Positions 12,765 to 62,956 of a stretch of 64,000 nt of DNA are shown one piece after another (position 1 is the stretch's first letter; every line of letters begins with the position of its first letter). Source of the DNA: Candidatus Yanofskybacteria bacterium (lineage in GTDB: Bacteria; Patescibacteriota; Minisyncoccia; 2-02-FULL-40-12; IGHO2-01-FULL-4-A); assembly GCA_016181175.1 (NCBI GenBank), contig JACOZV010000001.1, positions 259,519 to 323,518 of the forward strand, read 5' to 3'. The notes under the pieces are model-generated. The model was not told where the DNA came from, did not search any database, and worked only from the letters and a program-made list of their open reading frames with translations. The translations under genes were made by a program, and so were the position numbers.

Positions 12765-12769
12765 GGAGG

Positions 12770-13345: not shown

Positions 13346-13539
13346 CCGATTCACCGTCCCCGCTTTGCGAAAACCATAAAGATACGCCCAAGCTAGAAGA
13401 TTCGGTAAAAATAAAATGCCGTATGTGTTCAACGGGTGATCCCGATTCACTTCGTGATTCATTTTATGAGGATGCCCAGCTTTGTCAGGAATGTCATGAC
13501 AACACGCAGTTCTGTATTATCTGCCAAGAACCCATCTAA
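13342..13539 (+). CDS. small Cys-rich zinc-ribbon protein
   Basis: CxxC...CxxC...CxxC; ATGA overlap with upstream gene. Confidence 0.45.
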   Translation: MTDSPSPLCENHKDTPKLEDSVKIKCRMCSTGDPDSLRDSFYEDAQLCQECHDNTQFCIICQEPI

Positions 13540-13540
13540 A

Positions 13541-13618
13541 TAGGACTTACGCGCATAGTCCTATGTAGGTCCAAATTAAAAACCCTAGCTTAATCTAATT
13601 AGCTAGGGTGTTTTTGTG
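13541..13618. terminator. pair of hairpins (palindrome ataggacttacgcgcatagtcctat; ccctagc..gctaggg + T-run) between convergent genes
   Basis: perfect palindromes followed by T-run. Confidence 0.55.
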
Positions 13619-13619
13619 T

Positions 13620-41525: not shown

Positions 41526-42233
41526 ATGTCGTTTGTAAGAACCTCAAAACTACTAAAAATATCCCGCGCCAATATTCAGCTGATGAAAGAATGTCCGCGC
41601 TGTTTTTGGTTATACAAGCATAAGGGTATCGGTCGGCCGCAGGGCTATCCGTACACGCTTTCAATAGCAGTAGACCAGTTGCTTAAGCATGAGTTTGACG
41701 AGTATCGGGAGAGGGGAGAGATGCACCCGGTTTTAGTTGGATTTGATGGGCTGGCGGAAGCTCATCTTTTTTCTGACCAAGGACAGCTTCAAAAGTGGCG
41801 CAATAATTTTGAAGGACTTAAATACCACGACGAGGGTCTGGATGCCACGCTTTTCGGTGCGGTTGACGATATGTTGGAGTTTTCCGATGGTTCGCTTGCG
41901 GTGATAGATTATAAATCTTCAGGTGCCAAGGAAATATCCGTTTATGATGATTACAAAATGCAGATGGATGTCTATACGTATATTTTGGAACAACTCGGTT
42001 ATAAGACTGCCCGAAAAGGGTATTTCGTATTTTTTCAGGTAGACAAAACAGACGGTTTTAGAGGGCGTTTGCCGTTTCGTGGTGAAATACGTGATGTGGA
42101 TGCTGATCCAAGCTATATTTATGATCTTTTTGCTAAGGCCGTTACCTTGGCTCGTTCAGACAATCCACCTCCGTCTCATGCCGAGTGTCAATATTGTATG
42201 TATGCGGAGCACCATAAACATATAAATGAATAA
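41526..42233 (+). CDS. PD-(D/E)xK nuclease, Cas4/RecB-nuclease-like with Cys cluster
   Basis: N-terminal CPRCFWL, VIDYKS (D-x-K), C-terminal CQYCMY. Confidence 0.6.
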   Translation: MSFVRTSKLLKISRANIQLMKECPRCFWLYKHKGIGRPQGYPYTLSIAVDQLLKHEFDEYRERGEMHPVLVGFDGLAEAHLFSDQGQLQKWRNNFEGLKYHDEGLDATLFGAVDDMLEFSDGSLAVIDYKSSGAKEISVYDDYKMQMDVYTYILEQLGYKTARKGYFVFFQVDKTDGFRGRLPFRGEIRDVDADPSYIYDLFAKAVTLARSDNPPPSHAECQYCMYAEHHKHINE

Positions 42234-43689
42234 AATGGTTGATAAAAAACCAAAACTTACCGGCGAACATTTTTATAAATTTTTCCAATGTCCGCATTGG
42301 ATTTGGTATGATATCTATGCCGATCAAACCAAAAAGGGTGGAATTCCTCCTCTGATAGAGATGATTCACCGGGGCGGTCTCAAGCATGAAAAAGAAATGA
42401 TCCAGACGCGCAAGTTTGAAGAAATAAAGCCGGAACTTTTTCGCGATCTTGATGAAGCTTTTTTGTCTACGCTTGAGCTGATGAAACAAGGGAAAAATAT
42501 CTACCACGGTGTGTTGATGGATCAGAATTGGGTTGGCATTCCGGACCTGCTTGAAGCGCGGCCAGTGGAGAAAGGAATGAAATCTAACTTTGGTGACCAT
42601 TACTATGTTGTATATGATGTTAAAACCGGCAAAGAAATGCGTGACGAATACAAATTCCAGCTGGTTTTCTACAGTTTAATTTTGGAACGACTGCAGGGGG
42701 TTTTGCCGCGCGATGCTTTTATCGTCAACTCTGACGGCGAGGAGCGTTCATTCATGGTTGATGACTTTCTTGACTATTTTCACTTGACCAGGGAGAGAAT
42801 TGAACGAGTTTTGGCCGGCGAAAAACCGCCACCATTTCTTAAAAGTGGCTGCAAGCAATCGCCATGGTATTCACTTTGTGTTGATGAGACAAAGGGTTGC
42901 GACGATGTCTCGTTGATTTACAGGTTGAGCCAGAACGACCAACGGCGTTTTTATGAACTTGGTATACATAGCGTAAAAGATTTGGCTTCAGCCGATTTGG
43001 ATAACTTACGTTCGCGGCTTGAAGACTGGCCGTTTGATAAAATCCTGCGTTTTTATAATCAGGCCCAAGTACTGGTTTCAAACGAGCCAAAAGTTCTCAA
43101 GAAAAGCGAGTTTCCTCAAGTAGAAAACGAAATATATTTTGATATTGAATCTGATCCAACGGAGGGCATCGATTATCTTTTTGGGATGCTCATAAAAAGC
43201 GGAAACAAAAAACCCGAATACAAATATTTTTTGGCACAGGATAAAAAGGACGAGGAAAGGGTGTGGCGTGATTTTTTGGATTTTCTCGAATCTCTTAATG
43301 ACTTTGTCATTTATCACTATTCTTATTACGAAAGAGAAGTTTTTAAGCGTTTGGGCAATGAATATGGTATTTCAGTGGCGCTTGAAGATAAGTTCAAAAA
43401 TAATACAATTGATTTACACTGGAAATTTATTGAAGCAGCAGTTTTGCCAATTTATTTTTACAGCCTAAAAGATGTTGCCAAGTATCTTGGCTTCAAATGG
43501 CAGGCCGATGACGCTGGCGGAGCAGAATCGGTGGTTTGGTACAATGATTGGTTGCAGAAGCATGACCAAAAAATCATGGACAAAATCATCAAATATAATG
43601 AGGACGATGTAAAAGCTACACTGTTTCTCAAGGAGTGGTTGGATAAACAAAAACCCCGAACAAGCAAGGAGCGACTGCCGGAAGACTAG
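42226..43689 (+). CDS. RecB-family nuclease (TM0106-like) with C-terminal RNase-H-like 3'-5' exonuclease (YprB-like) domain
   Basis: CPHWIWY, YDVKTGKEMRDEYKFQL; IYFDIESDP...YHYSYYE. Confidence 0.55.
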   Translation: MNKMVDKKPKLTGEHFYKFFQCPHWIWYDIYADQTKKGGIPPLIEMIHRGGLKHEKEMIQTRKFEEIKPELFRDLDEAFLSTLELMKQGKNIYHGVLMDQNWVGIPDLLEARPVEKGMKSNFGDHYYVVYDVKTGKEMRDEYKFQLVFYSLILERLQGVLPRDAFIVNSDGEERSFMVDDFLDYFHLTRERIERVLAGEKPPPFLKSGCKQSPWYSLCVDETKGCDDVSLIYRLSQNDQRRFYELGIHSVKDLASADLDNLRSRLEDWPFDKILRFYNQAQVLVSNEPKVLKKSEFPQVENEIYFDIESDPTEGIDYLFGMLIKSGNKKPEYKYFLAQDKKDEERVWRDFLDFLESLNDFVIYHYSYYEREVFKRLGNEYGISVALEDKFKNNTIDLHWKFIEAAVLPIYFYSLKDVAKYLGFKWQADDAGGAESVVWYNDWLQKHDQKIMDKIIKYNEDDVKATLFLKEWLDKQKPRTSKERLPED

Positions 43690-43895: not shown

Positions 43896-45287
43896 GTGTT
43901 ACGTAGATTTACTCCATTGATAATTTTAGCCGTTGCTCTGTTTTTGGGCGTTTTTGCTTATCCTCAAGGTTGGGATATGGGCGCGGACATAGTAAATTCA
44001 AAACTCAAAATCCAAAATTCAAAATATAAGATTCCACGTATGTTTAAAATTCCGCCATTTCGTCTTGGTCTTGACCTGTTGGGCGGTACCCACTTAGTTT
44101 ATCAAGCCGATTTGTCTGGAACCGAGGGTCAAAGCGCTGGTGACGCTATGTCTGGTGTGCGTGACGTTATCGAGCGCAGAGTTAATCTTTTTGGCGTTGC
44201 AGAACCGTTGGTGCAAATTGAAGGCAACGATCGTCTTGTGGTGGAATTGGCCGGCATCAAAGATGTAAATCAGGCAATACAGATGATTGGTCAGACGCCA
44301 TTTTTGGAATTCAAAGAAGAACGTCCGTCAGAAGAGTCGCAAAAAATTATTGAAGCCCAACAAAAAGGTTCATCCAGCACCAGTTTGGACAGCCCCGAAC
44401 TGGTGCTGGACAAGCAACAGTTTGAAGATCCGTATTTTAAGCCAACCGGTTTAACCGGTCGATATCTTAAGCGTTCCCAATTGACATTTGATCAGACAAC
44501 ATCACAACCGGAGGTTTCGCTGGAATTAAACGACGACGGAGCAAAATTATTTGCTGAAATTACAAAGCGAAATATTGGGAAGCGTGTTGCAATTTATGTT
44601 GACGGCGTGGGCATAAGCGCACCGACGGTTCAAAGCGAAATTCCAAGCGGTCGTGCCGTGATCAGTGGCAGTTTTTCCATAAAAGAAGCCAGGGATTTAG
44701 TTAACAATCTTAATGCCGGGGCACTGCCGGTACCGATAAATTTAATTTCACAACAGACGGTGGGCCCTTCTTTGGGGCAGGAATCACTGCAAAAATCATT
44801 GACGGCCGGCTTATACGGATTGCTTGCGGTAGCCATTTTCATGATATTGTTTTACCGTTTGCCCGGCCTTGTGTCAGTTGTCGCTTTGTTGGTGTATGTT
44901 GCAATTGTTCTGACTGTCTATAAAGTAATTCCGGTAACGCTGACTTTGGCCGGAATAGCAGGTTTTATATTGTCTTTGGGTATGGCTGTGGATGCCAATA
45001 TTTTGATTTTTGCCAGAATGCGCGAAGAGTTAAAGGCTGGCAATTCTTTAGCACAGTCATTTGCAAGCGGTTTCCACCGAGCTTGGTACTCAATCCGTGA
45101 CAGTCACGTTACAACTTTGCTCGGCGCTTTTGTGCTGTATGCTTTTTCAACATCTGTGGTTAGGGGATTTGCTTTGACGCTTGGAATCGGAGTTTTGGCA
45201 AGTTTGTTTACGGCCATTGTTATTACTAAATCATTTTTAAGGTTGTTTATTGGACACAAAATGGAGAAAACAAAGTGGATGTTTTAA
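43896..45287 (+). CDS. secD: protein-export membrane protein SecD
   Basis: 463 aa; N-terminal TM, periplasmic domain, C-terminal 6-TM RND-like block. Confidence 0.9.
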   Translation: MLRRFTPLIILAVALFLGVFAYPQGWDMGADIVNSKLKIQNSKYKIPRMFKIPPFRLGLDLLGGTHLVYQADLSGTEGQSAGDAMSGVRDVIERRVNLFGVAEPLVQIEGNDRLVVELAGIKDVNQAIQMIGQTPFLEFKEERPSEESQKIIEAQQKGSSSTSLDSPELVLDKQQFEDPYFKPTGLTGRYLKRSQLTFDQTTSQPEVSLELNDDGAKLFAEITKRNIGKRVAIYVDGVGISAPTVQSEIPSGRAVISGSFSIKEARDLVNNLNAGALPVPINLISQQTVGPSLGQESLQKSLTAGLYGLLAVAIFMILFYRLPGLVSVVALLVYVAIVLTVYKVIPVTLTLAGIAGFILSLGMAVDANILIFARMREELKAGNSLAQSFASGFHRAWYSIRDSHVTTLLGAFVLYAFSTSVVRGFALTLGIGVLASLFTAIVITKSFLRLFIGHKMEKTKWMF

Positions 45288-45291
45288 ATAT

Positions 45292-45570
45292 GAATCCCAA
45301 ACGAGACAGCAAAACCATGTTTTATACATATGTTTTAAGAAATAAAAAAAGCCGCTTTTATGTTGGTTTTACTTATGATTTACGGAAACGCTTCAATGAA
45401 CATAATAATAAAAAATCAACTTATACAAAATATCGTGGCCCATACGAACTTATTTACTATGAAGCTTGTCTTGATGAGAATGACGCTCGTTAAAGAGAAA
45501 AGTATTTTAAATCTGGAACAGGTAAACGCTACTTCAAAAACAGATTGAAGCGTTTCCTGTCTCGTACTGG
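45292..45570 (+). mobile_element. family-3 arms enclosing a GIY-YIG ORF, inserted between secD and secF
   Basis: gaatcccaaacgagacagc after secD stop; ttcctgtctcgtactgg immediately before secF ATG. Confidence 0.6.
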
Positions 45571-45571
45571 A
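45317..45571 (+). pseudogene. GIY-YIG nuclease (YhbQ-like) interrupted by in-frame TAA at codon 59; would otherwise end ATGA-overlapped with secF
   Basis: FYTYVLRNKKSRFYVGFTYDLRKRFNEHN...YELIYYEACLDENDAR-stop-REKYFKSGTGKRYFKNRLKRFL. Confidence 0.6.
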
Positions 45572-46461
45572 TGAAACCCATATATACAATTATGTTTTTT
45601 ATTTCCATGGCGCTGACTGTCGCGGCCGTTATTTTGGTGGCAGTTTTTGGTTTGCGTTTTGGGGTAGATTTCAAGGGCGGCTCTTTACTGGAAATTGCCT
45701 TTGTTAATCCTCGTCCATCAACCGGAGAAATACAAAATATTATAAGCGGGATTGACGGTGTCAAAAACATAAATGTAAATCCGGTGGGTGACAACGGTGC
45801 TTTAATAAGGCTAAATGATATCAATGAGCAGACTCATCAAGATATTTTAACTAAGATTTCCGGAAGTTTTGGTGAGATAATGGAAAATCGCTTTGATTCC
45901 ATAGGTCCTGTAGTCGGCAATGAGTTGAGAGATAAGAGCGTTAAGGCAATAGTAATTTTATTAATAGCTATAATTATTTATCTCGCTTTTGTTTTTAGGA
46001 AAATTTCACGCGTTCTTTCCTCTTGGGCTATGGGTTTAGCTGCCATTGTTGCGCTGGTTCATGATGTTATTATACCCGTTGGCGTTTTTGCGTTACTTGG
46101 GCATTATTATGGAATTGAGATTACGGCAATTTTTGTGGCGGCCGCATTAACTATTTTGGGGTATTCGCTTTCTGACTCCGTTGTTATTTTTGATAGAGTA
46201 AGAGAAAACGTGCTTCGTTTGGGCATTTCTCATCAAAGTTTCGGAGCACTTGTCCACAAAAGTGTCTTACAAACCCTGGTCCGTTCCATTAATACGACCC
46301 TCACAACGCTATTTTCTCTGATTGTGATTTACTTTTTTGGAGGAGAATCAATAAAATACTTTTCTTTAGCCCTAATTATAGGTATTTTTTCAGGCGCTTA
46401 TTCTTCAATTTTTGTTGCTTCTCCGATTCTAGTTTGGCTTAGCAATCGACGCAAGAGTTAA
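45571..46461 (+). CDS. secF: protein-export membrane protein SecF
   Basis: 296 aa, 6-TM SecF pattern. Confidence 0.9.
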   Translation: MKPIYTIMFFISMALTVAAVILVAVFGLRFGVDFKGGSLLEIAFVNPRPSTGEIQNIISGIDGVKNINVNPVGDNGALIRLNDINEQTHQDILTKISGSFGEIMENRFDSIGPVVGNELRDKSVKAIVILLIAIIIYLAFVFRKISRVLSSWAMGLAAIVALVHDVIIPVGVFALLGHYYGIEITAIFVAAALTILGYSLSDSVVIFDRVRENVLRLGISHQSFGALVHKSVLQTLVRSINTTLTTLFSLIVIYFFGGESIKYFSLALIIGIFSGAYSSIFVASPILVWLSNRRKS

Positions 46462-46628
46462 AAAATATGGTGGTATTGACATGTCAGGCGCACGGTTATA
46501 TGTTGATATGTTAAGCAGTTGACCCATTTAAAACTATATGGTATCTTTATAAATAACAACCAACTAATGGTTAGAAAATAGTAATAATTAGTTTACTTTT
46601 TACTATTATTTGTTGGCATAAGTGATAC

Positions 46629-47684
46629 TTGACAAATTTGAATAGTACAATCAGGGGGGTAGTCGGACAGGTGCTTTATGTTTTAAACACCAGAAATAAG
46701 GATGTGATATCCCGGCGTTTTGGTTTGAAAACCGGCAAAAAAGAGACGCTGGAATCGATTGGTAAAAGCTACGGTATTACTCGTGAAAGAGTCAGGCAGA
46801 TTGAAGAAGCATCGCTAAAGCAGATTAGGGAAAATTTAAATTCCAGCCTGGCCAGTAAGGTGAAGCCCTTTGTTGACCTTGCTGAAAACACTCTTGAACA
46901 AGCCGGAGGTGTAACCAGCGAAGATAATCTTTTTGCAAAGTTTTCGGGTGTTGCTAAAGAAAATCCGGCCAATGCTACACTAGTCTTTTTTCTTTCTTTG
47001 GATGGCAGACTCAGGAAATTTATTGAGACTGATGATTTTAATACTTTTTGGGCATTATCCGATCAGCATGCCGAATCATTTAATAAGTCCATTTTTGCTT
47101 TTATCGACGCTCTAAAAAAGTTAGGGACGCCAATTGCCGAATCGGCAGTTGTCGATTTTTATAAGAAATCTGGTGCCACCCTCAAAGATGTAACGTCTGC
47201 AACTGTTGCTTCTTTTATTTCAGTTTCTAAGAATATTGCCAAAAACAACTTTGGCCAGCTTGGTTTGACTAGTTGGCCTGACATAAAACCTCGTGGCGTA
47301 AAAGATAAGGCCTTTCTTGTGCTTAAGCGTGATGGTAAGCCCCGACATTTCAGGGAAATAACCCAATTGATTAATACGTCAAGTTTTGGTAACCGCAAGG
47401 CTAATGTACAAACAGTTCACAACGAACTAATCAAGGACAAAAGATTTGTTTTAGTTGGCCGCGGTTTATACGGTTTGACCGAATGGGGATATAAGGCGGG
47501 AACCGTTAAAGATGTTATAGTTGACATATTGCGTTCTACCGGTCAGCCCATGCATAAAAAAGACATTGTAACCCAGGTTTTATCTAATCGTATGGTTAAA
47601 GAAAATACGATTCTTTTAAATTTACAGAACCCCAAAGTCTTTGAAAGAAAAGGCAATGGAGTCTACGCACTTAAAGAAGCATAA
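46629..47684 (+). CDS. sigma-70 region-4-like HTH protein with C-terminal HARE-HTH-like domain
   Basis: ETLESIGKSYGITRERVRQIEEASLKQIR; C-terminal KKDIV...GVYALKE. Confidence 0.55.
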   Translation: MTNLNSTIRGVVGQVLYVLNTRNKDVISRRFGLKTGKKETLESIGKSYGITRERVRQIEEASLKQIRENLNSSLASKVKPFVDLAENTLEQAGGVTSEDNLFAKFSGVAKENPANATLVFFLSLDGRLRKFIETDDFNTFWALSDQHAESFNKSIFAFIDALKKLGTPIAESAVVDFYKKSGATLKDVTSATVASFISVSKNIAKNNFGQLGLTSWPDIKPRGVKDKAFLVLKRDGKPRHFREITQLINTSSFGNRKANVQTVHNELIKDKRFVLVGRGLYGLTEWGYKAGTVKDVIVDILRSTGQPMHKKDIVTQVLSNRMVKENTILLNLQNPKVFERKGNGVYALKEA

Positions 47685-47690
47685 ATGCTT

Positions 47691-47768
47691 CCAGTAAACG
47701 GTAATCAGTAACCAGTAATCAGTAATTTATTTTTTGATTTTTCCAGTTACCAGTTACGAGTTACTAAT
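47691..47768. repeat. inverted arrays of agtaacc/agtaatc heptamers around a T-run
   Basis: taatcagtaaccagtaatcagtaat ... ccagttaccagttacgagttactaat. Confidence 0.7.
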
Positions 47769-47779
47769 TACTTTGTATT

Positions 47780-49057
47780 TTGTTCTACGACGTTTTTAGT
47801 CCACTAAAAACCGCTTTTTCTCTTATCTTGCTCTATTGGTGGATTTTCACCCCGTTTTTATTTTTTTTCGGCGCACTTGACGGCTGGCTTTTTTATAAAA
47901 GAAAAAAGCACCTGCTCTCCATCAGGTGGGTTTTACTTGAGGTTAAGCCTCCACCTGACGTCCAAAAAAGTCCCAAAATAGCTGAAAATATATTTTCTGG
48001 CCTTCACGCTGTTTATTCGGGACCAAAAAGCTGGAAGGACAAATTTTTTAAAGGCGAAGTTCAGCCCTGGTTTTCGTTTGAAATCGTTGGCAATGGCGGT
48101 GAAATTAACTTTTATGTCAGGACACCAGAAGACCTGCGCAACTTAGTCGAAGCTCAAATTTTCGCGCAGTATCCAGACGCGGAAATTAAAATTGCTGATG
48201 ATTACATAAGCCAACTTCCCGAGCATTTGCCCAACAATGACTATGATATGTTCGGCACCGAACTCGTATTTTCAAAACCAAACGCCTATCCAGTCAAAAC
48301 GTATCCGTTTTTTGAAGAGGAGTCCGGCAAGGACGAATTCAGGCGGACGGATCCACTGGCACCGCTTGCAGAAATAATGAGTGCGTTGGAATCAGGCGAG
48401 CACATCTGGGTGCAGCTTTTAATAAGGGCTACTGGCGATGCGTGGGTTAAAGAAGCAAAGATTGAGATAGACAAACTAGTCGGCAAAGAGCCAAAAATTG
48501 AACGCGATGCGCTTGGCAAAGCTGTTGACTTTGTGGACCAGCTTTTGCCTGGCGGAACACCACCGCAGGAAGAAAAGAAAAAAGAAGATTTTTCACCGCA
48601 AAAACTTACGCCGGGTCAGAAATTTACTCTTGAACAGGTTGAAAATAAAATTTCAAAACTGGGCTTCAAATCCGGTTATAGATTTTTTTACATTGCGCGC
48701 AAAGACCGTTTTCATGGGTCACATATTTCAGCGGTTATGGGCATGTTCAAACAGCTTTATTTCAATAACCTTAACAGTTTCAAACCCAATAAAAGGGTTA
48801 TTACCAAGGACAAAGGATGGTTCCCATGGCTTTTCCCTTCGGAAAAAGGATTTTTTTATCGTGAACGTGAATATAGGCGCAAGGAGTATCTTTATCAGAA
48901 ATACCGCGAGAGGGCTTTTGTCGACCAGTTTATAATTTTAAACACTGAAGAACTAGCCACATTATTCCATTTGCCTGGCATTGGCGTGAAGGCGCCGGCA
49001 TTTCCAAGGGTTGAAGCGAAGAAGGGGCAACCGCCTGCCGGTTTACCAACAGGGTAG
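47780..49057 (+). CDS. hypothetical membrane-anchored protein
   Basis: N-terminal TM helices; 425 aa. Confidence 0.45.
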   Translation: MFYDVFSPLKTAFSLILLYWWIFTPFLFFFGALDGWLFYKRKKHLLSIRWVLLEVKPPPDVQKSPKIAENIFSGLHAVYSGPKSWKDKFFKGEVQPWFSFEIVGNGGEINFYVRTPEDLRNLVEAQIFAQYPDAEIKIADDYISQLPEHLPNNDYDMFGTELVFSKPNAYPVKTYPFFEEESGKDEFRRTDPLAPLAEIMSALESGEHIWVQLLIRATGDAWVKEAKIEIDKLVGKEPKIERDALGKAVDFVDQLLPGGTPPQEEKKKEDFSPQKLTPGQKFTLEQVENKISKLGFKSGYRFFYIARKDRFHGSHISAVMGMFKQLYFNNLNSFKPNKRVITKDKGWFPWLFPSEKGFFYREREYRRKEYLYQKYRERAFVDQFIILNTEELATLFHLPGIGVKAPAFPRVEAKKGQPPAGLPTG

Positions 49058-49059
49058 AA

Positions 49060-49139
49060 TGTTGATAATTTTTAATTTCCAATTTTTAATTTTTAAACAT
49101 TAGAAATTATTTATAAAATTAAAAATTTAAAAATTTTTC
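49060..49139. promoter_or_regulatory. AT-rich repeat motif (inverted copy of 41476-41525 block)
   Basis: aatttccaatttttaatttttaa. Confidence 0.5.
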
Positions 49140-50828
49140 ATGAACGTAGTGAATGACAATCCAGTCGTATTATTTGGTGAAACTAACTTTCGCAATAAGA
49201 AAGTGACTTTTGGTGTTAAGATGGATGACCGCCGCCGCCATATGTATGTAATCGGTAAAACCGGTATGGGCAAATCAGAACTGCTCAAAAATATTGCCAT
49301 ACAGGATATTCAGGATGGCAGGGGGCTTGCTTTTGTTGATCCGCACGGGGATCCTGTTGAAGACCTGTTTGATTACATTCCAGAAGACAGAATAAAAGAT
49401 GTTATTTATATAAATCCTGCCGATTTGGAATATCCGATTGCTTTCAATGTCATGGAACAAGTTGATCCAGACAAGCGCCACCTGGTTGCTGACGGTGTGA
49501 TGGGCGTATTCAAAAAAATATGGGTTGACGTATGGTCGCCGCGCATGGAATACATCCTCAATAACACCATCTTGGCTTTGTTGGAAACTCCGGATGCGAC
49601 ACTGCTTGGCATTAATAGAATGCTTGCCGAGAAGGAATATCGGGCAAAAGTTGTGAATCAGCTAACTGATCCGGTTGTAAAAGCGTTTTGGACTGAAGAA
49701 TTTGCCAAATACGCCGACAGATTTGCTTCGGAGGCAACAGCGGCGATACAAAACAAAGTTGGTCAGTTCGTATCCTCATCTTTAATCCGCAACATTATTG
49801 GCCAATCGAAATCCACGCTTGATATGCGAAAAATTATGGACGACGGTAAGATTCTGCTGGTCAATATTTCAAAGGGAAGAATCGGCGAAGATGCCTCGCG
49901 ATTGCTTGGTGCGTTGATTATCACCAAAATTCAGCTTGCGGCAATGTCTCGTGTTGACATGCCAGAGCGGGAGCGCAAGGATTTTATACTTATGGTAGAC
50001 GAATTCCAGAATTTTGCCACTGCTTCATTCGCCAATATTTTATCGGAGGCCCGCAAATATCATTTAAGTTTGGTTATTGCACACCAGTATGTTGCACAAA
50101 TGGACGAAGGTGTCAGAGATGCGGTTTTTGGCAATGTGGGAACAATTGTTTCTTTTAGAGTGGGCGCAGAAGATGCAGAATTACTGGAAAAAGAATTAGC
50201 GCCGGAATTCATGGCAACCGATATAGTTAATCTAGGCAAAAGGCAGATATATTTGAAGCTTATGATTGACGGTGTGGCGTCGCGCGCTTTTTCAGCAATG
50301 ACGATGGATACAATTAAACGCTTACCCATCGGTTATCGCCAAAGAATTATCGACTATTCAAGAGAACATTATTCTGCTCGCCGTGAAGATGTGGAGAAAA
50401 AAATTGCTGACTGGCATGCCCCGGTAACTGCTGATATTAGCAGATTCGACAAATCCACCGCGGGCAGATTTTATGATGAACGTCCGCAACGCGAAATGCG
50501 TTCGCCACGCCCAAATTATGGCGAGTCAAACCGATTCGATACTCTTCCAACACGATTTGAACCCAGACCCCAAGTTTTTCAGCATCGTCCCGCACCCAGC
50601 GAGGTTAGGGCCGTGCCTGGACCCATGCGATCTAATCCCATTGCTTCATCTAAACCACCAATTAAACCAATTTCTTTTTCAGAAGCCATAAAAAGCGGTC
50701 CTGTTGATTTTAAGGGGCGCAAACTTGAGCCAAAAACAGTTGTGCCGCGACCAAAAGTTGAAGTTGATGTCGGTGGATTGCGTAAGATTCTGGAAGAGAG
50801 CATGAACAAAGAAGAAAGCCCTGATTAG
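49140..50828 (+). CDS. FtsK/HerA/TraD(VirD4)-superfamily P-loop ATPase with Pro-rich disordered C-terminus
   Basis: GKTGMGKS Walker A, VDPHGD, ILMVDEFQNF Walker B. Confidence 0.6.
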   Translation: MNVVNDNPVVLFGETNFRNKKVTFGVKMDDRRRHMYVIGKTGMGKSELLKNIAIQDIQDGRGLAFVDPHGDPVEDLFDYIPEDRIKDVIYINPADLEYPIAFNVMEQVDPDKRHLVADGVMGVFKKIWVDVWSPRMEYILNNTILALLETPDATLLGINRMLAEKEYRAKVVNQLTDPVVKAFWTEEFAKYADRFASEATAAIQNKVGQFVSSSLIRNIIGQSKSTLDMRKIMDDGKILLVNISKGRIGEDASRLLGALIITKIQLAAMSRVDMPERERKDFILMVDEFQNFATASFANILSEARKYHLSLVIAHQYVAQMDEGVRDAVFGNVGTIVSFRVGAEDAELLEKELAPEFMATDIVNLGKRQIYLKLMIDGVASRAFSAMTMDTIKRLPIGYRQRIIDYSREHYSARREDVEKKIADWHAPVTADISRFDKSTAGRFYDERPQREMRSPRPNYGESNRFDTLPTRFEPRPQVFQHRPAPSEVRAVPGPMRSNPIASSKPPIKPISFSEAIKSGPVDFKGRKLEPKTVVPRPKVEVDVGGLRKILEESMNKEESPD

Positions 50829-51077
50829 GCAAACCCTGGAGTTACATCAAAAATTACAAATTTAATTAGCAAAAAAGATTATTTGCCGGCTACGCGCACG
50901 TGTTTTGCTGGCCCTCTTGGACAGGCGCAAAACGCGCGCGCCTCCGCCGGTAAGTAACATCCTCTGCTTAGCAATTATGGGAGTGATAAAAACCGCCGAT
51001 TGGTATCGGCTTTTGTTTTGTAATTTTTGATGATAGCAATTTGATTTTTTGTATTTTTTGATATTTAATCAAAGGTA

Positions 51078-52364
51078 ATGGCTACTCATAAATGGATTCC
51101 GTGGCCGGGCATAGGACAGGTGGACAAGGGGAGCATCTCTCCGGTTGTAGACAATCATTTTTTCCGACGTTTGAGCGATAAGCGCCAGCTCGCTTTCAGT
51201 TACTTGGTTTTTCCCGGGGCGACACATGACCGCCGTCAGCATTCAATGGGCGCTTACATTAAAACTTGCGAGTTTACCGCGCGGATGGTTGAGCGCGGTT
51301 TTTTAACCAAAAAACAAGCCTTGAACCTCGGCCTTTACGCACTGTTACACGATATCGGCCACGGTCCCTTTTCTCATATTATAGAACCGTTTACCAAGAT
51401 TAACCACAAGGAATACGGCCTTAAGATTGTGGATAGGATGACGGATGATATTAAAAAATGCGGCGGTGATATTAAGCTGATAAAAAGCTATATGAAAAAA
51501 AAGGATCCGGCTTGGCGGATAGTCAGCGATAAGAATTTTGGCATGGAAAAAATGGATTACCTGGTTCGCGATCAAGAAGCGACAGAATTCGGCCCTAATA
51601 TACGTCGCTGTGTGGAGAGCGTTTTTAACCATTTGGAATATAAAAACGGCAGTCTTACGGTTGATTTAAAAGCGTTGGATGCGGCTATTGAAATACAGAG
51701 AGCTTACATCTATTTTTACAGAAACGTTCATCTGGAGAAAAGCGCCTATTTAATCCAGCGTTTTATGCAGAAGCTGATGTACAGATTACTCAATACGCCC
51801 AAAAAACTCGGTGGGATTACCGAAGACGAGCTGTGGGAGATGGTAGACGGCGACTTGATTCATGCTTTGAAAAAATGCCGTGACGAGACCGTCAGAAATG
51901 GCATAGCGATTTTTGATAACGGTGTGCGCCATTTTCCAAAGACTGCTTTGGCAATCCGTTTAACAGGATATAAGTGGCTTGAACGGCGCGCTGGCAAGCA
52001 GATAAAGGTTGTTGAAGCTGATAAGAAATTTTTTGATAAGTTTTTTGTAAAATCCAGCGCCGCCGATTTGGAAAAAATAGAAACAGCAATTGCCAAATTG
52101 TTGGGCATAGAAAGTTGGAAAATGGCCGTAAGCCATATAGTGGAGAAAAACCGCTTTATTCCAGAGGATATTTTATTTTTTGACGGACCGAAAACTTATT
52201 CATTAAAACAGCAAGATCCGAGTTATTTTGAACTTCTTGAAAAAGAATTGGATAAATATTTGTGTGTCAGGGTCTGCGTGGTGCCTGAACATCGCCAGGC
52301 GCTATATTCCAAATGGAAAGAAGTTTTTGATCTTGTTTGCAAATATGTTGGTCATAAACCATAA
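51078..52364 (+). CDS. HD-domain phosphohydrolase (dGTPase/SAMHD1-like)
   Basis: H...HD...LLHDIGHGPFSH. Confidence 0.7.
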   Translation: MATHKWIPWPGIGQVDKGSISPVVDNHFFRRLSDKRQLAFSYLVFPGATHDRRQHSMGAYIKTCEFTARMVERGFLTKKQALNLGLYALLHDIGHGPFSHIIEPFTKINHKEYGLKIVDRMTDDIKKCGGDIKLIKSYMKKKDPAWRIVSDKNFGMEKMDYLVRDQEATEFGPNIRRCVESVFNHLEYKNGSLTVDLKALDAAIEIQRAYIYFYRNVHLEKSAYLIQRFMQKLMYRLLNTPKKLGGITEDELWEMVDGDLIHALKKCRDETVRNGIAIFDNGVRHFPKTALAIRLTGYKWLERRAGKQIKVVEADKKFFDKFFVKSSAADLEKIETAIAKLLGIESWKMAVSHIVEKNRFIPEDILFFDGPKTYSLKQQDPSYFELLEKELDKYLCVRVCVVPEHRQALYSKWKEVFDLVCKYVGHKP

Positions 52365-52398
52365 AACCGGCTTAAGCCGGTTTTATGGTTTATGAGGG

Positions 52399-52447
52399 TC
52401 CGTCCACCAGGAATCGAACCTGGAACCTTCTCCTTAAAAGGGAGCTG
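52399..52447 (-). repeat. duplicated 3' half (anticodon stem to 3' end) of tRNA-Lys, not a complete tRNA
   Basis: 49 nt identical to 52489-52537 region of the full gene. Confidence 0.8.
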
Positions 52448-52488
52448 TCCTGGTTTTGTAAACAAAATCGAGGATTCTCGATACAAAG

Positions 52489-52561
52489 TCCGTCCACCAG
52501 GAATCGAACCTGGAACCTTCTCCTTAAAAGGGAGCTGCTCTACCAATTGAGCTATGGACGG
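52489..52561 (-). tRNA. tRNA-Lys (anticodon UUU)
   Basis: manual fold: acceptor CCGTCCA/TGGACGG, U8, D-loop AATTGGTA, anticodon loop CUUUUAA, T-loop TTCGATT. Confidence 0.75.
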
Positions 52562-57879: not shown

Positions 57880-59703
57880 ATGCCGGAACAGACACAGCCA
57901 CACCCGCTGCGCAGATTTATTATTTCCCTTAAGTTATACAGGGCACACATAGGATTGGGTAGTAACGAAAAGCTTATTAAGTTTGTTGATGAGCTTGTTC
58001 AAAGTGCTGAAAGAATTGAAACAAGGCAGGAGGCATCGGGCAGATCGGTTGGGTTAAGTTTTGAGTTTTTAGATTCAGTTTGCGGTTTCCTTTATAACCA
58101 ACTGCAAAAAGTAACAGCAGAAAACAATAAAAATAAGGCCGAAGCCAATAAATTATTGGAAAACCTGAAAAGTGCCGTTGAAGAAATAAAAGCTCTTCAA
58201 CGCCCTCCCCATTCGTTTGTTTTTTTTCAGAAGTTGGAAGAAAGAGGTGGCGAATTTTGGATTCGTACAAAAGATAGTACTGCTTTAGTATTTTCAGACG
58301 AATTGGTTGAGAAACTAAAAACCGCCAAAGCGGGCCAAAAGGTTCGGCTCAACGAATCCGGTGTAGCCATAGAATTGTTGGACGAGTTTGATAAAGACGG
58401 CGACATGGTGCAAGTTCTCGAGTTGTTGGGTGACAACCGATTGAGGGTTAGCCAAGAAAATAGGGGTGAAAGCATAGTTTTTATTTCTCCTTGTGTCCAA
58501 GAGGCGGATCTCAAAATAGGCGATAAGGTTTTACTTTCGCGATATAACAATTTAGTTACTGAAAAATTGTCCAGCTCCGAAGTAACCGAACTGGTTTTGC
58601 ATAAAGTTCCTAATTATACCTGGGATGATATTGGTGGTTTGGAAGAACAAATTGGTGCGTGGCGGGACGAAGTTGAAACCAACCTGGTTGATCCCGAATC
58701 AGCCAAAATTTACGGAATTGAGCAAACGAAAGGCGTTTTAATTACCGGTCCGCCCGGAGTCGGTAAGACTTTTCTCGTAAAAGTCGCGCTTAGCGAAACC
58801 GTAAAGTTTGTTAATCAGCAAACAGGCAGAAATATCGAGGGTTTTTATATCCTTGTAAACGGTCCAGCCGATATTTTGCGCGGTATTGTGGGGGATTCGC
58901 CGCGGCGAATCCAATATCTTTTCGCTGAAGCCAAAAGAAGGGCCAAGGAAGGCCATTTGGTTTTTATAATTTTGGATGAGTTCGAATCGTTATTTAGAAT
59001 ACGCGGCTCAATGGTTTTGGATGCCGGGGTTGGCAATGAAGATGTTAACCAGTTAAATGCTGAAATGGACGGCATTGAAGAATTGGATGGCGTACTGGTT
59101 GTGGCTTTGTCAAACAGGGCTGACCTAATTGACCCCGCCGTAATCAGACCCGGCAGGTTTGATCTCAAGATAGAAATTCCGAGATATGATAAAAAAACTG
59201 CCGCCAAAGTCTTTAGCAAATACATCAAACCGACACTCAAGTTCCATCACCAATATAAAAATCAAGACCCGGAACAAACTGCAAACCTGTTTGTTAACAA
59301 CATCGTTGATCTGTGTTATGACAGTCAGAGACCAGAAAATCAGCTGGCAGAAGTCATAGATGATGACTCCGGAGAATCTATCGTGTTCACTATTGGCAAC
59401 TTTATGTCCGGAGCTTTGATTAAAAACATAGTTTCAAGGGCAAAAAAAATTGCCCGTCGCCGGTTTGTGAATATTCCCAAAGAACAAGGCGAGAAAAGAG
59501 AATTAGAAGGGCTTATGTTGGACGACTTTTTCCAATCCATTGCAATAATTATCAGAAGCGAAATTAAATTACCGACCGGCGAGCAGGCACTAGAAGAATG
59601 GCTTCAAATTGAAGGTTATCAACACAGAAAAATAAGAAGAATGCGTTTTCTTTTGGACAAGAAAGATCCGTCCCGGACACCGGAACGCAGGGTCATGTCT
59701 TAA
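57880..59703 (+). CDS. proteasome-associated AAA ATPase (ARC/Mpa-like): coiled coil + OB-like region + AAA module
   Basis: GPPGVGKT Walker A, IILDEF Walker B, N-terminal coiled coil. Confidence 0.75.
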   Translation: MPEQTQPHPLRRFIISLKLYRAHIGLGSNEKLIKFVDELVQSAERIETRQEASGRSVGLSFEFLDSVCGFLYNQLQKVTAENNKNKAEANKLLENLKSAVEEIKALQRPPHSFVFFQKLEERGGEFWIRTKDSTALVFSDELVEKLKTAKAGQKVRLNESGVAIELLDEFDKDGDMVQVLELLGDNRLRVSQENRGESIVFISPCVQEADLKIGDKVLLSRYNNLVTEKLSSSEVTELVLHKVPNYTWDDIGGLEEQIGAWRDEVETNLVDPESAKIYGIEQTKGVLITGPPGVGKTFLVKVALSETVKFVNQQTGRNIEGFYILVNGPADILRGIVGDSPRRIQYLFAEAKRRAKEGHLVFIILDEFESLFRIRGSMVLDAGVGNEDVNQLNAEMDGIEELDGVLVVALSNRADLIDPAVIRPGRFDLKIEIPRYDKKTAAKVFSKYIKPTLKFHHQYKNQDPEQTANLFVNNIVDLCYDSQRPENQLAEVIDDDSGESIVFTIGNFMSGALIKNIVSRAKKIARRRFVNIPKEQGEKRELEGLMLDDFFQSIAIIIRSEIKLPTGEQALEEWLQIEGYQHRKIRRMRFLLDKKDPSRTPERRVMS

Positions 59704-59745
59704 TAAAATAAATAAAACCTCGCTTTACTTGGCGAGGTTTTTTAC
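59704..59745 (+). terminator. rho-independent terminator
   Basis: cctcgctttacttggcgagg + T-run. Confidence 0.6.
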
Positions 59746-59789
59746 TTAGAGTGGTTTAATTAGTGCAGATCTTTAAAAACGAGAGGAAT

Positions 59790-61445
59790 ATGAGTATTAA
59801 AAAAATTGTTGGAATAGAAACCGAGCTAAGACTTGACTGCGTCGATCCCGAAAATGACAAAAACCGAAAGAATTCTGGAGAATTGGAAGATTACGTGCTT
59901 CCGGGGAGTGTTGTTAAAAACGCGTTGAGCCAATCTGGTGGAGTTGTCGCCGTTGGTTCCGACACGCAACCCGCAAATTTGCAAAAAAATTTGGCGATTG
60001 TGGAAAATTTAAAAAAACTTTATCCGTCGTCACAAAAAGCCATACAAGAGCATTTGGAAAACAGAAGCGCAAGAAAGCGGGACCGTGGCATATCTGAAGA
60101 AGACTGCCTTGATACATATCAAAGATTTGGCCTTTCGGGCGGTTATACGTTTTCGGGTTTTAGGATTTATGTTGATGGAACTCATCCCGAAGTGTCAACG
60201 CCTGAATGTGCCACTCCTTTTGATTTGGTTTGCCGGCAAAAAGCCGGGGAAAGGATCATAGAAGAGGGCAGAAAGAAAACCGAAGAAGAAACCGGACGAC
60301 GGATTACGCTTTCGGCTGACAACAGCGACGGTTTGGGGGGAAGCTGGGGTTCTCACGAAAATTACCTTGTAAGCGATGAGCTTTTCGAGAGCCTTACTGA
60401 GGAAGGATGCCACCGTCACGATTTTCGCAGAACCCTTAATTCATATCAGGACTTTTGGGCCTCTTTTTTGGTGACACGTTTTGTATTTTGTGGTTCTGGC
60501 AAAATGGGCAGTGAAATTGACCAGGATTTGGAAAATAAATTTTTGATTTCGCAAAGAGCGGAGTTTATAAGCTGTAATTTTAGTCATAGAACCATGGAAC
60601 ACCGTCCCATTATAAATCTGCGCGATATTCCTTATGTTGGACCCGGATTTGGCCGGAGGCTGCACGTAATAATTGGTGACTCTAACATGTGTGAACCGGC
60701 AATTTACCTAAAAGTTGGCACGGCGATGATAATGCTGATGATGTTAGAAGATAATTTTATTTCTGAAGGTTCTTTCCCTATTTTTGAAAAACCGGTTAAA
60801 GCCTTGCAAACCGTCATGTCTGACGTTGATTGCTCCAATCTCCTAGATGTCTATGTTGGCGGTCAGTTTAGACACATGACCGCGATAGATATACAGAAGT
60901 TTTTTTGCGAATTGGCGGCAAAATGGCTTGAAGAACGTTTTAAAAATACCAGCGACAAAAAATCTGTTTCTTGGGTTTCGGAAGTTTTGTTCAGATTAGA
61001 TCAAGTTTTGACCAAGTTAAAAAATGATCCCATGGATCTTTTTGGCACAATTGACTGGGTGACCAAGTATGGCTTATGTTGTTCTGAACTTGAAAACCGA
61101 AATGCTGGTTGGACAGACGTAACCTCGCGTTCGAACCCGCTATTTCGCCGTTTGATCGGGATATGCGGCGCATATCATAGGTTAGACGAACTTGGCATAT
61201 ACAATAAATTAGAAGAAGCTCAAGAAGTTGAACGTATTGTTCAGGACGTTAATATTCACATTGCTTGTCTTGAGCCGCCGCAAGGCACCAGGGCTTTTGA
61301 GAGGGGCAAATTTCTTAGACATTTCAGGGACGACATATATCTTGTAAACTGGAACCTCATTTGCATTAAACGCAATCCTTACAAAATATTTCTAAACAGT
61401 CCATATTCATTTTCACCCGCTTTAGATGTGGAGCAAGAATCATGA
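59790..61445 (+). CDS. Pup-ligase/deamidase (PafA/Dop) family homologue 1, divergent N-terminal motif
   Basis: IVGIETELRL (instead of ETEYG), HPEVSTPECATPFD; SD gagagga. Confidence 0.65.
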   Translation: MSIKKIVGIETELRLDCVDPENDKNRKNSGELEDYVLPGSVVKNALSQSGGVVAVGSDTQPANLQKNLAIVENLKKLYPSSQKAIQEHLENRSARKRDRGISEEDCLDTYQRFGLSGGYTFSGFRIYVDGTHPEVSTPECATPFDLVCRQKAGERIIEEGRKKTEEETGRRITLSADNSDGLGGSWGSHENYLVSDELFESLTEEGCHRHDFRRTLNSYQDFWASFLVTRFVFCGSGKMGSEIDQDLENKFLISQRAEFISCNFSHRTMEHRPIINLRDIPYVGPGFGRRLHVIIGDSNMCEPAIYLKVGTAMIMLMMLEDNFISEGSFPIFEKPVKALQTVMSDVDCSNLLDVYVGGQFRHMTAIDIQKFFCELAAKWLEERFKNTSDKKSVSWVSEVLFRLDQVLTKLKNDPMDLFGTIDWVTKYGLCCSELENRNAGWTDVTSRSNPLFRRLIGICGAYHRLDELGIYNKLEEAQEVERIVQDVNIHIACLEPPQGTRAFERGKFLRHFRDDIYLVNWNLICIKRNPYKIFLNSPYSFSPALDVEQES

Positions 61446-62956
61446 AACCACTAACCAGTTTTGCATGTGAGCTGGACCGGATTTACGGTACGGAAACAGA
61501 ATACGGCCTCTATTGGAATACCAATAAAACCGACATTTTTGATTTGATGGATAGAAATTTTGCTCTATCCATTACGGATTATGAAAACCTTTTTAACTGT
61601 TTTGATAACTTAAATTTTAGTCGATTGTCCGAATTTTTTGTTCAAAATGGCGGTTTAATCAAGAAAGATAATCCAAATGATTACTGTGATTGTACGCCAG
61701 AATTTGCCACACCGGAATGTAAATCAGCCAGAGACGCGGTTTGTTGGGAAAAAGCCGGGGAAATAATAATGCGGGGCTTGTTCGATCTTTCAGGTGCGAA
61801 TAATTCTGTTTTTTTGATGGTCAAGCACGGCCGCGGCATGGCAAATTATTGGGGTTTGGACGGCACAGTAGTGGAAGTTTCTTGCGGCCATCATGAAAAT
61901 TATTCATATGACGAAGAACTTAAAGCAAGATTAAAAAAAGACAGCTGGGAATCCTGCGTATTTGTTTCGTTTCTTGCCTCGCGTATTCTATTTAGCGGAG
62001 CAGGTTGGTTGGATTCAAAAGGTTTGGGTTATAAGTTAAGTCAACGGGTTGATTTTTTAGAACAAATTAAAGGTTTGAGCACAACCGAAAAACGAGCCCT
62101 GATTTGTACTCGTGATGAACCATTGGGAACACTAAGTCCGCCACGATTGCATCTTATTGCCGGCGATCATTTAATGTCGGAAGTGGCCTTGTATTTAACC
62201 CTTGGATCCACGGGTTTGGTTGTGAGGATGTTGGAATCGGGATACGATTTTGCCGGTGTGCCAATTTTGGAAAATCCGATTTTGGCCTTGCGTATATTTA
62301 ATTCGGACCCGTTGTTAAAAAATAAGGCAATGCTTAGCGGACTCCAAAAAGAAATAACTGCTCTTGAAATTCAGGAATATTTTTGTGCCAGAGCCGGTGA
62401 GTTTATTAATTGTAACCCGTCGACTGAAGAAGAAAATGATATTGTAGCCTATTGGGCAAGCGTGCTGAAGCGTCTCAAAAAAGATATTTACTCTCTTTAT
62501 GGTGAACTCGACTGGGTTACCAAATTGTGTTTAATGGAATCTTATTTGGAAAAATACGGCATTTGTCCCGAGAGGATTAGGGAGACCAATGGTTTGCCGC
62601 TAGAAACTTTAAATTGTTGCATGAGCCTTGATCTGACATATCATTTTATCACGCCTGACGGCCTGTATAACAAACTTAAAGAAGCGGGTTTGATCAAAAG
62701 GCTTCTGTCTGACGAAGAAATAACTCATGCCGTGACCAATCCGCCGCAAGATACCAGAGCAAGAATTAGGGGAGAAATGATTCAACTTATGAAGTCTGGC
62801 AAAATAGAAGGCCGAGTTGGCAATTGGAATAGCTTTAGCTTAAGTGGTCTTCCGCCGCACCAGCGTTTGGTTAGATCCGTCATAGGCATGGAAGATCCTT
62901 TTGATTTTTATTGCAAAGTATGGCAAGATCAAAAAAGATCATTAGGCTTCTCTTAA
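61442..62956 (+). CDS. Pup-ligase/deamidase (PafA/Dop) family homologue 2
   Basis: YGTETEYGLYW and TPEFATPECKSARD match PafA/Dop N-terminal signatures; ATGA overlap with homologue 1. Confidence 0.7.
   Translation: MKPLTSFACELDRIYGTETEYGLYWNTNKTDIFDLMDRNFALSITDYENLFNCFDNLNFSRLSEFFVQNGGLIKKDNPNDYCDCTPEFATPECKSARDAVCWEKAGEIIMRGLFDLSGANNSVFLMVKHGRGMANYWGLDGTVVEVSCGHHENYSYDEELKARLKKDSWESCVFVSFLASRILFSGAGWLDSKGLGYKLSQRVDFLEQIKGLSTTEKRALICTRDEPLGTLSPPRLHLIAGDHLMSEVALYLTLGSTGLVVRMLESGYDFAGVPILENPILALRIFNSDPLLKNKAMLSGLQKEITALEIQEYFCARAGEFINCNPSTEEENDIVAYWASVLKRLKKDIYSLYGELDWVTKLCLMESYLEKYGICPERIRETNGLPLETLNCCMSLDLTYHFITPDGLYNKLKEAGLIKRLLSDEEITHAVTNPPQDTRARIRGEMIQLMKSGKIEGRVGNWNSFSLSGLPPHQRLVRSVIGMEDPFDFYCKVWQDQKRSLGFS

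Follow-up and report, generated by a model that had tools for sequence, protein, structure and literature searches.

The window analysed here, a chromosomal stretch of 64,000 nucleotides from a contig of a Candidatus Yanofskybacteria metagenome-assembled genome, contains a trio of same-strand open reading frames (ORFs) at positions 46629-50828, which we call ORF1, ORF2 and ORF3. We conclude that ORF2 and ORF3 are a split, chromosomal and orphan long-form type IV coupling protein (T4CP), in which ORF2 is the N-terminal module, with a predicted VirB4-like fold, and ORF3 is the ATPase. This is no new kind of machine, and its function is one that we infer. Taken as a whole, together with the mechanism proposed below, the view that the pair is a chromosomal, vertically inherited two-gene version of a long-form T4CP is in our judgment probable. 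It gives the orphan VirD4-type ATPase of Patescibacteria an anatomy, namely a two-gene split T4CP with a DUF8128 partner, and it gives DUF8128 a first functional assignment, correcting the annotation of thousands of "hypothetical" genes. It would also provide a structural link between VirB4 and T4CP, the two ATPase families of type IV secretion systems (T4SSs). An earlier reading of the same DNA from its letters alone (the sequence-only reading) had placed the trio at exactly these coordinates, and had suggested a split coupling protein-like or DNA-uptake/transfer module. The placement, on the + strand, and the split coupling protein are borne out below; the uptake/transfer module is not.

The split is shown by fused homologues on conjugative plasmids and by one PHROG profile that spans both ORFs. 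On the single 824-position profile phrog_5156, ORF2 matches positions 26-307 (E 1.3e-11) and ORF3 matches positions 392-809 (E 4e-62). A tblastn search of plasmids with ORF3 returned 674 records, all at less than 60% identity, and of the five plasmid records examined, four have the ORF3-like region as the C-terminal portion of a longer protein, with one matched place per record. In the 833-aa protein of B. methanolicus pBM69 (WP_003349917.1), residues 53-310 align with ORF2 residues 94-419 (hhalign probability 97.9%, E 4.3e-13) and residues ~321-742 match ORF3 residues 7-410. The same collinear order, ORF2 and then ORF3, is found in an Embleya plasmid protein (WP_331738717.1, 812 aa; 36-393 and ~402-779; ORF2 part 56%, E 1e-4) and in a Haladaptatus plasmid protein (WP_227357333.1, 1193 aa; 62-361 and ~397-822; ORF2 part 59%, E 9e-5), while an 861-aa S. 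aureus plasmid protein matches ORF3 and, partially, ORF2 (39%, E 3e-4). The pBM69, S. aureus and Embleya genes each adjoin a "replication-relaxation family" gene in clusters that also carry a separate VirB4-like ATPase, and we therefore read their products as coupling proteins of monoderm-type conjugation systems; the Embleya cluster additionally has PrgI and NlpC/P60 genes. The neighbours of the Haladaptatus gene are all unannotated.

The gene break between ORF2 and ORF3 falls exactly at the linker between the two T4CP modules, and by alignment the two ORFs correspond to the N-terminal and C-terminal modules of the long T4CPs. The C-terminal tail of ORF2, in which the columns E390-P423 are invariant or near-invariant, aligns with "VILGTEEMAAIMRLPS" of pBM69 and "LSVPELAALAHLP" of the Embleya T4CP; in the pBM69 alignment the junction motif reads ILNTEELATLFHLP in ORF2 against VILGTEEMAAIMRLPS. 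Since this tail directly precedes the ATPase domain in the fused homologues, we presume it to be the element on which ORF3 docks.

Two observations on relatives outside the chromosome may be recorded here. Fused DUF8128-like and T4CP-like proteins form the phage family phrog_5156, for example Bacillus phage G gp156 (JN638751.1 91972-93099), and 36 phage records, for the most part from Bacillus phages, match ORF3 by tblastn at 22-28% identity. Among plasmids, the closest relative of ORF3 is on the Sulfitobacter mediterraneus plasmid NZ_CP081110.1 (99994-101181; 40% identity, E 6e-83). It is a stand-alone 395-aa ATPase with no DUF8128 partner, followed directly by a transposase gene and, ~2.7 kb downstream, by an IS91-family transposase, and it may be a horizontally acquired fragment.

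The ATPase motifs named in the sequence-only reading are all present in the ORF3 translation (GKTGMGKS at residues 39-46, DPHGD at 67-71 and MVDEFQNF at 285-292), and their key residues do not vary among homologues: G39, G42, G44 and K45 of Walker A are invariant (T41, M43 and S46 are conserved in at least 90%), as are D287, E288, F289 and Q290 of Walker B. ORF3 scores above the Pfam cut-offs for TrwB_AAD_bind (E 1.9e-9, 37.3 bits against a cut-off of 20.5), DUF87 (25.3 bits) and TraG-D_C (24.2 bits). The solved structures closest to it in sequence are those of TrwB of R388, which aligns over residues 19-328 and across the all-alpha domain at E 3.4e-8, and of DotL, and the ORF3 family profile aligns with TrwB at an hhalign probability of 95.2% over 267 columns. 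Against VirB4/TrwK the same profile aligns at the P-loop only (1.6%), and ORF3 scores 17.5 bits on NCBIfam VirB4_plasma, where the cut-off is 590. By sequence, ORF3 is thus of the T4CP type and not of the VirB4 type, and its best relatives are T4CPs rather than an unrelated housekeeping ATPase family, the outcome that would have spoken against a coupling protein-like enzyme. It scores only 17-38 bits on the NCBIfam T4CP equivalogs (SXT_TraD, TOL TraD, F TraD, CD1115 VirD4-like and CedD; cut-offs 250-650), which places it outside all of the named TraD/VirD4 subfamilies.

In architecture, ORF3 has a RecA-like nucleotide-binding domain of the FtsK/HerA superfamily, with Walker A and B motifs and similarity to TrwB/VirD4, and it has the all-alpha insertion expected of a T4CP. 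The AlphaFold2 (AF2) model places the helices of this insertion at residues 110-234, they align through the all-alpha domain of TrwB, and they are very conserved (for example RMEYILN and LLGINR). ORF3 lacks the HAS-barrel and NurA partner of HerA, and it lacks the alpha/beta/gamma domains and multi-span transmembrane domain of FtsK. A transmembrane (TM) domain on the same polypeptide, the other T4CP feature, is absent. Using the mean Kyte-Doolittle hydropathy of 19-residue windows and a threshold of 1.6, we found no hydrophobic segment in ORF3 (maximum 1.22), in agreement with the sequence-only reading; the anchor is carried by ORF2. The C-terminal tail of ORF3 is rich in proline and arginine (P19, R15 and S13 among 132 residues). 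Its linker (431-511) is disordered and varies in length, and the model has a pLDDT below 50 across residues 431-515. The tail ends in a conserved motif (~512-556, SFSEA..GPVDFKGRK ... VD..GLRKILEE) with short helices at 513-519 and 544-556, which is presumed to be a partner-docking peptide.

ORF2 is recorded publicly as a "hypothetical protein" (MBI2062905.1), and ORF3 is 100% identical to MBI2062906.1. The DUF8128 label (PF26449) of ORF2 comes from its homologues, since it is precomputed on all 120 that are listed, at 51-85% identity; ORF2 itself had no match among the Pfam, NCBIfam and PADLOC models, the Pfam set used being one without the DUF8128 model. A search of PDB sequences with the ORF2 profile gave nothing under E 0.17, and we found nothing on PF26449 or DUF8128 in the literature library that we searched. 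The sequence-only reading had expected the ORF preceding the ATPase to supply N-terminal TM helices. The membrane anchor is indeed on ORF2, but as one hydrophobic segment (~12-33, maximum 2.0, followed by KRKK), the sole segment reaching 1.6 in the trio and the following ORF4; the AF2 model has helices at residues 7-18 and 20-47. Beyond the anchor lies a cytoplasmic domain of ~370 residues, for which the model predicts the fold of the VirB4 N-terminal domain. At the level of sequence we tried and dropped ORF2 as a homologue of VirB4 or of TrsD, because its family profile is without similarity to either (hhalign probability 0.3% against TrwK and 0.2% against pSK41 TrsD).

All three ORFs have many homologues (at least 7984 for ORF1 and at least ~8000 for ORF3, while the ORF2 profile matches 3129 clusters at 50% identity), so we regard them as real conserved genes and not as chance ORFs. 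The best 150 of the 3129 ORF2 clusters are all stand-alone proteins. To describe the context we used 80 species-level loci fetched with the ORF2 profile, 78 of which have enough DNA. In 78/78 ORF3 follows ORF2 directly and on the same strand, never fused to it, with a median gap of 18.5 nt. ORF1 is directly upstream of ORF2 in 63/80 loci, with two more borderline cases, and secD-secF is upstream of the cassette in 58, the usual order being secD-secF-ORF1-ORF2-ORF3; in nine loci secF abuts ORF2 with no intervening ORF1. SecD and SecF Pfam domains were seen at the equivalent locus L089. The loci cover Yanofsky-, Wolfe-, Colwell-, Uhr- and Kerfeldbacteria, Spechtbacterales and Microgenomates, and the ATPase core is 50-65% identical where ORF2 is only 32-35% identical. 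Clustering of the neighbouring ORFs at the 78 loci recovered housekeeping families only (AspRS, a PDDEXK-RNaseH protein, SecA, MnmA, MraY, FtsW, DnaK and others). The locus is core chromosome, vertically conserved next to secDF, and not a mobile module.

The cassette, clearly a patescibacterial one, is found in many third-party annotation assemblies titled "uncultured Candidatus Saccharibacteria" or "uncultured Gammaproteobacteria" (L004, L006, L008 and others; L054-L057, L062-L070, L076) and in one titled "Candidatus Methylomirabilis" (L050). Some of these organism names, at the least, seem not to be reliable: L004, which has a Saccharibacteria title, shares 74% identity with the Yanofskybacteria ORF2.

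Compared with known systems, the pair most resembles the long-form T4CPs of monoderm and archaeal MPF-FATA-type elements. Those of pBM69, Embleya and Haladaptatus have the same DUF8128-like N-terminal module with an "EELA..HLP" junction, followed by a TrwB-like ATPase, and pLS20 gene 48 encodes a similar long T4CP of 786 aa with two N-terminal TM segments (PMC8557374). However, the long forms are single polypeptides of ~800-1200 aa encoded on plasmids, mostly beside a relaxase and a VirB4-like ATPase, whereas the Yanofskybacteria pair is two chromosomal genes beside secDF and a sigma-r4/HARE-HTH gene, with no relaxase or T4SS nearby, and its ATPase is only 24-34% identical to theirs. In the canonical TrwB/VirD4 type, TrwB (R388) instead carries only a 70-residue two-helix TM domain fused to the ATPase (PMC7431656). 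TrwB, which adjoins a relaxase on its plasmid, has no module like the VirB4 N-terminal domain, unlike the ORF2/ORF3 pair. The likeness to VirB4 (TrwK) is confined to the modelled N-terminal fold of ORF2 and the P-loop of ORF3, and the plasmids with fused homologues carry VirB4 separately. The split VirB4 of pSK41/pGO1 (TrsD plus TrsE) shows the VirB4 paralogue divided in a parallel way: on pSK41 trsD is directly 5' of a DUF87 ATPase gene, and a resemblance of TrsD to the N-terminal part of VirB4 has been reported. A class of T4CPs without a TM domain, each paired with a membrane protein, is already recognised; in TraJ/TraI of pIP501 (PMC7431656), one example, a cytosolic T4CP ATPase is likewise thought to owe its membrane association to a separately encoded membrane protein. 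ORF2 differs from TraI in being a large module homologous to part of the fused T4CPs and not a small anchor.

What appears to be a fused form of the cassette is found in Southlakia epibionticum, the one relative that is genetically tractable, for which transposon sequencing (Tn-seq) has been published (Wang et al. 2023, PMC10633639). SEML1_0294 (349 aa; Sigma70_r4 at 27-72 and HARE-HTH at 225-283) is essential, and directly downstream on the same strand is SEML1_0293, a 921-aa protein with PF10412 at 402-719 and a P-loop domain at 361-795, which is non-essential and was well hit by transposon insertions (PMC10633639). Gene order and Pfam architecture (PF10412, PF12696 and PF01935 in SEML1_0293) agree with those of the Yanofskybacteria cassette, so SEML1_0294/SEML1_0293 appears to be the same cassette with one fused T4CP in place of two genes, and the cassette with its sigma-r4/HARE-HTH gene is apparently conserved from Paceibacteria-type lineages as far as Saccharimonadia. 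The annotated neighbours of the S. epibionticum cassette are GNAT, Cas9 and topoisomerase I, and secDF is not listed beside it. We believe that the T4CP pair has a conditional and not a housekeeping role, since S. epibionticum can do without its fused and apparently orthologous gene in epibiotic growth.

We propose that ORF2 would anchor ORF3 at the cytoplasmic membrane and help the ORF3 ring to assemble, acting through the junction that is covalent in the fused homologues. The ring would spend ATP to recruit a substrate, either DNA or unfolded protein, and to feed it to a membrane channel, and the C-terminal motif of ORF3 would be a docking site for an adaptor or substrate, as are the C-terminal tails of TraD and DotL. 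The most parsimonious channel would be the chromosomal MPF-FATA-type T4SS that is encoded elsewhere in most Patescibacteria and that shares its evolutionary origin with the fused homologues. Patescibacteria genomes are tiny, yet 96% of them keep VirD4-type ATPases. The available text of a recent survey reports 5,713 VirD4-type T4CP homologues in 2,918/3,035 Patescibacteria genomes, of which only 148 are near virB4, and mentions neither a gene split nor a partner protein for them (Quinonero-Coronel et al. 2025, PMC12102498).

Several points weigh against this reading and the mechanism attached to it. The window, the remainder of which is housekeeping or envelope biosynthesis, has none of the genes for a relaxase, T4SS, pilus or competence, and no relaxase, T4SS/VirB component, pilin or integrase recurs around the 78 related loci; on the same grounds, the DNA-uptake/transfer module of the sequence-only reading finds no support. 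Since no T4SS, relaxase, pilin or competence gene is near the loci, the coupling of ORF2-ORF3 to a T4SS is something that we infer only. In S. epibionticum the T4SS (SEML1_0006-0019) is essential (PMC10633639) and SEML1_0293 is dispensable. The true partner of that T4SS may instead be SEML1_0142, a second T4CP-like protein of 1019 aa with a TraM-recognition domain and a P-loop domain at 381-800, which is essential (PMC10633639); we found no equivalent of it in the window. The assignment of SEML1_0294/SEML1_0293 to this cassette is an orthology by domain architecture and gene order. VirB4 was found in 2,417 genomes in the survey cited above, compared with 2,918 for the T4CPs, and by those counts some genomes would have a motor with no channel (PMC12102498). 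Of the alignments with fused homologues, those for Embleya, Haladaptatus and S. aureus, each made against a single-sequence template, are weak when taken one by one (39-59% probability). The link between ORF2 and VirB4 is structural and comes from the AF2 model, and the physical contact between ORF2 and ORF3 is a prediction.

The alternative that survives best, although we think it unlikely, is that the split T4CP is a T4SS-independent DNA translocase, exapted either as a cytoplasmic motor for DNA uptake beside ComEC in natural transformation or as a membrane-anchored pump for chromosome or plasmid DNA. A T4SS-independent role is kept alive by the Tn-seq data and by the excess of T4CP-bearing over VirB4-bearing genomes (~500), and the survey's authors raise exaptation themselves, writing that it "cannot be ruled out" (PMC12102498). 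The cassette is never beside T4SS genes at the 78 loci, its conserved upstream neighbour ORF1 is a DNA-binding protein, and the fused S. epibionticum gene is non-essential like comEC, which is dispensable for growth in that organism and yet needed for transformation. However, a ComEC-like gene is within 10 kb in only 5/78 loci, at variable positions, which is about the chance level for a genome so small. Transcriptome papers on Saccharibacteria report FtsK, so that a pump for segregation probably exists already. DNA binding by the pair is putative, and its closest sequence homologues are conjugative T4CPs, which work with a T4SS.

A bolder version, to which we give still less credence, is that the pair keeps an ancestral T4CP architecture bearing the VirB4 N-terminal domain, and was exapted in Patescibacteria as a near-universal T4SS-independent membrane translocase. 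If this were true, VirB4 and the T4CPs would have arisen by duplication of an ancestor with that domain, and proteobacterial VirD4/TrwB would have lost it later. As a translocase of DNA or protein the pair could, for example, be the cytoplasmic motor so far missing from DNA uptake, and it would be genetically coupled to an essential sigma-r4/HARE-HTH RNA-polymerase factor.

That the synteny with secDF is functional, the pair working with SecDF in protein export or membrane-protein handling, strikes us as very improbable. Some T4CPs, such as DotL, translocate proteins, secD-secF is directly upstream in the 58 loci given above, and the nine loci without ORF1 bring secF up against ORF2; we know of no precedent for such a system, however, and the cassette of S. 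epibionticum has other neighbours. The synteny may just be conserved gene order in small genomes, as SecA, cyclophilin and the PDDEXK-RNaseH protein are also syntenic upstream.

We put equally little weight on ORF3 as an anti-phage defence ATPase of the MADS-like (mad8), HerA or DndH/DptH type. No methyltransferase, nuclease, Sir2 or other partner is adjacent, the neighbours being secDF and housekeeping genes, and the near-universal, syntenic and single-copy conservation of the gene is unlike that of patchy defence islands. The matches that suggest defence (PADLOC mad8 at E 6e-17, weak HerA and DndH matches, and a resemblance of ORF1 region 4 to the MzaA C-terminus) reflect, for the ATPase, a fold common to the FtsK/HerA superfamily. 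As a separate observation, mad8 is the best PADLOC match of ORF3 and is stronger than the Pfam TrwB match, with no MADS gene context at the locus, which suggests that mad8 itself is a T4CP-like ATPase.

Finally, an integrated conjugative or mobilisable element with the ATPase as its bona fide coupling protein, for which the homology to plasmid T4CPs and an att-like perfect 50-nt duplication of the 3' part of a tRNA-Lys 1.6 kb downstream could be cited, is effectively refuted: only 40 nt lie between the tRNA repeats, we found no integrase, relaxase or VirB gene in the window or among the neighbours at the 78 loci, the GC fraction around the trio (0.38-0.44) is inside the range of the whole window (0.35-0.48), and the order secD-secF-ORF1-ORF2-ORF3 is found again in Yanofsky-, Wolfe-, Colwell-, Uhr- and Kerfeldbacteria and in Microgenomates, where sequence identity follows phylogenetic distance. 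The repeat itself (52398-52447 and 52488-52537, with tRNA-Lys(ttt) at 52488-52561 on the minus strand) looks like the att-site scar of an integration or excision at the tRNA, with no element between the copies.

The sigma-r4/HARE-HTH label that the sequence-only reading gave to ORF1 agrees with its Pfam domains, Sigma70_r4 at residues 16-68 (E 5.8e-13) and HARE-HTH at 224-286 (E 3.1e-13, in two stretches), and the PDB matches are to region 4 of SigA/RpoD (E ~1e-11). Sigma region 2 was not matched in ORF1, and of the NCBIfam sigma models only the last 60-80 positions align, scoring 25-60 bits where the cut-offs are 240-800; with region 4 only and region 2 absent, ORF1 is not a sigma factor. Its score on the RNA polymerase delta subunit model TIGR04567 (38.2 bits, cut-off 42) is a similarity at the level of domains only. 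NCBI names the homologues "sigma factor-like helix-turn-helix DNA-binding protein", and no paper that deals with ORF1 came up when the literature was searched for HARE-HTH and sigma in Patescibacteria. Most probably ORF1 is a transcription factor that binds RNA polymerase or DNA and has an essential function of its own; it may be co-transcribed with the ORF2-ORF3 pair. We read it as a separate factor in an operon-like position because the ORF1-like gene is essential in S. epibionticum. The functional unity of the trio of the sequence-only reading is doubtful, given the essential ORF1-like gene and the adjacent dispensable T4CP-like gene in that organism.

The features of the locus are collected in Table 1. 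ORF1 and ORF2 are separated by 95 nt, ORF2 and ORF3 by 82 nt, and the end of secF is 167 nt from the start of ORF1; the start codon of ORF2 is TTG. The promoter-like site is one of 23 in total, compared with 18.9 +/- 5.2 expected from shuffled sequence, so there is no excess of such sites. The sequence-only reading also had an HD hydrolase following the trio. ORF4 does have an HD domain, but it adjoins the trio only in 15 loci, all close relatives, and we dropped it as part of the module.

Table 1. Features of the locus, in window coordinates.
Feature	Position	Strand	Evidence or remark
secD (43896-45287) and secF (45571-46461)	43896-46461	+	translations; upstream synteny partners
Promoter-like site TTGACA-17-TATGTT, secF/ORF1 gap	46476-46504	+	10/12 consensus positions; consensus match only
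ORF1, 351 aa, Sigma70_r4 + HARE-HTH	46629-47684	+	Pfam, translation
ORF2, 425 aa, DUF8128 (PF26449), N-terminal module of split T4CP	47780-49057	+	
ORF2 hydrophobic membrane segment, ~residues 12-33, with invariant Pro25, then KRKK	47813-47878	+	hydropathy, AF2, conservation
ORF2 C-terminal tail, ILNTEELATLFHLPG..VKAP.FPRVEAKKGQPP.GLP	48932-49048	+	conserved columns E390-P423
ORF3, 562 aa, VirD4/TrwB-type ATPase without TM segment, C-terminal module of split T4CP	49140-50828	+	
ORF3 Walker A GKTGMGKS, residues 39-46	49254-49277	+	translation, conservation
ORF3 all-alpha domain inserted in the nucleotide-binding domain, ~residues 100-235	49437-49844	+	AF2, TrwB alignment
ORF3 Walker B region FILMVDEFQ, residues 282-290	49983-50009	+	translation, conservation
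ORF3 C-terminal tail, Pro/Arg-rich disordered linker, then conserved end motif	50430-50807	+	pLDDT, composition, conservation
Terminator-like hairpin GCCGATTGGTATCGGC then T-run, ORF3/HD-gene gap	50995-51010	+	consensus match only
ORF4, 428 aa, HD-domain protein	51078-52364	+	Pfam HD E 6.8e-7; weak dGTPase similarity

Some other features of the window are worth recording. Within the secD-secF gap there is a 72-aa ORF with a GIY-YIG domain (45275-45493, +; Pfam E 6.7e-12). The two sec genes almost touch in most related loci, and small GIY-YIG ORFs are found at other positions in four related loci, which suggests that this is a small mobile nuclease gene. Upstream of secD, at 41526-43689 (+), a Cas4-like PD-(D/E)XK protein is followed by a 487-aa fusion of PD-(D/E)XK and RNase_H_2, which 23 related loci share and likewise have upstream of secDF. 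The stretch 57880-62956 (+) contains a pupylation-type gene set in a Patescibacteria genome: first a proteasomal-type AAA ATPase (Mpa/ARC-like, with Prot_ATP_ID_OB domains), then two genes of the Pup-ligase family (PafA/Dop-like). At the other end of the window, the cluster at 879-15290 contains three radical-SAM genes (one with SPASM and two with B12-binding domains), a thiamine pyrophosphate (TPP) enzyme, glycosyltransferases, methyltransferases, a ketopantoate hydroxymethyltransferase and a pentapeptide-repeat protein, and it may be a glycan or natural-product modification island.

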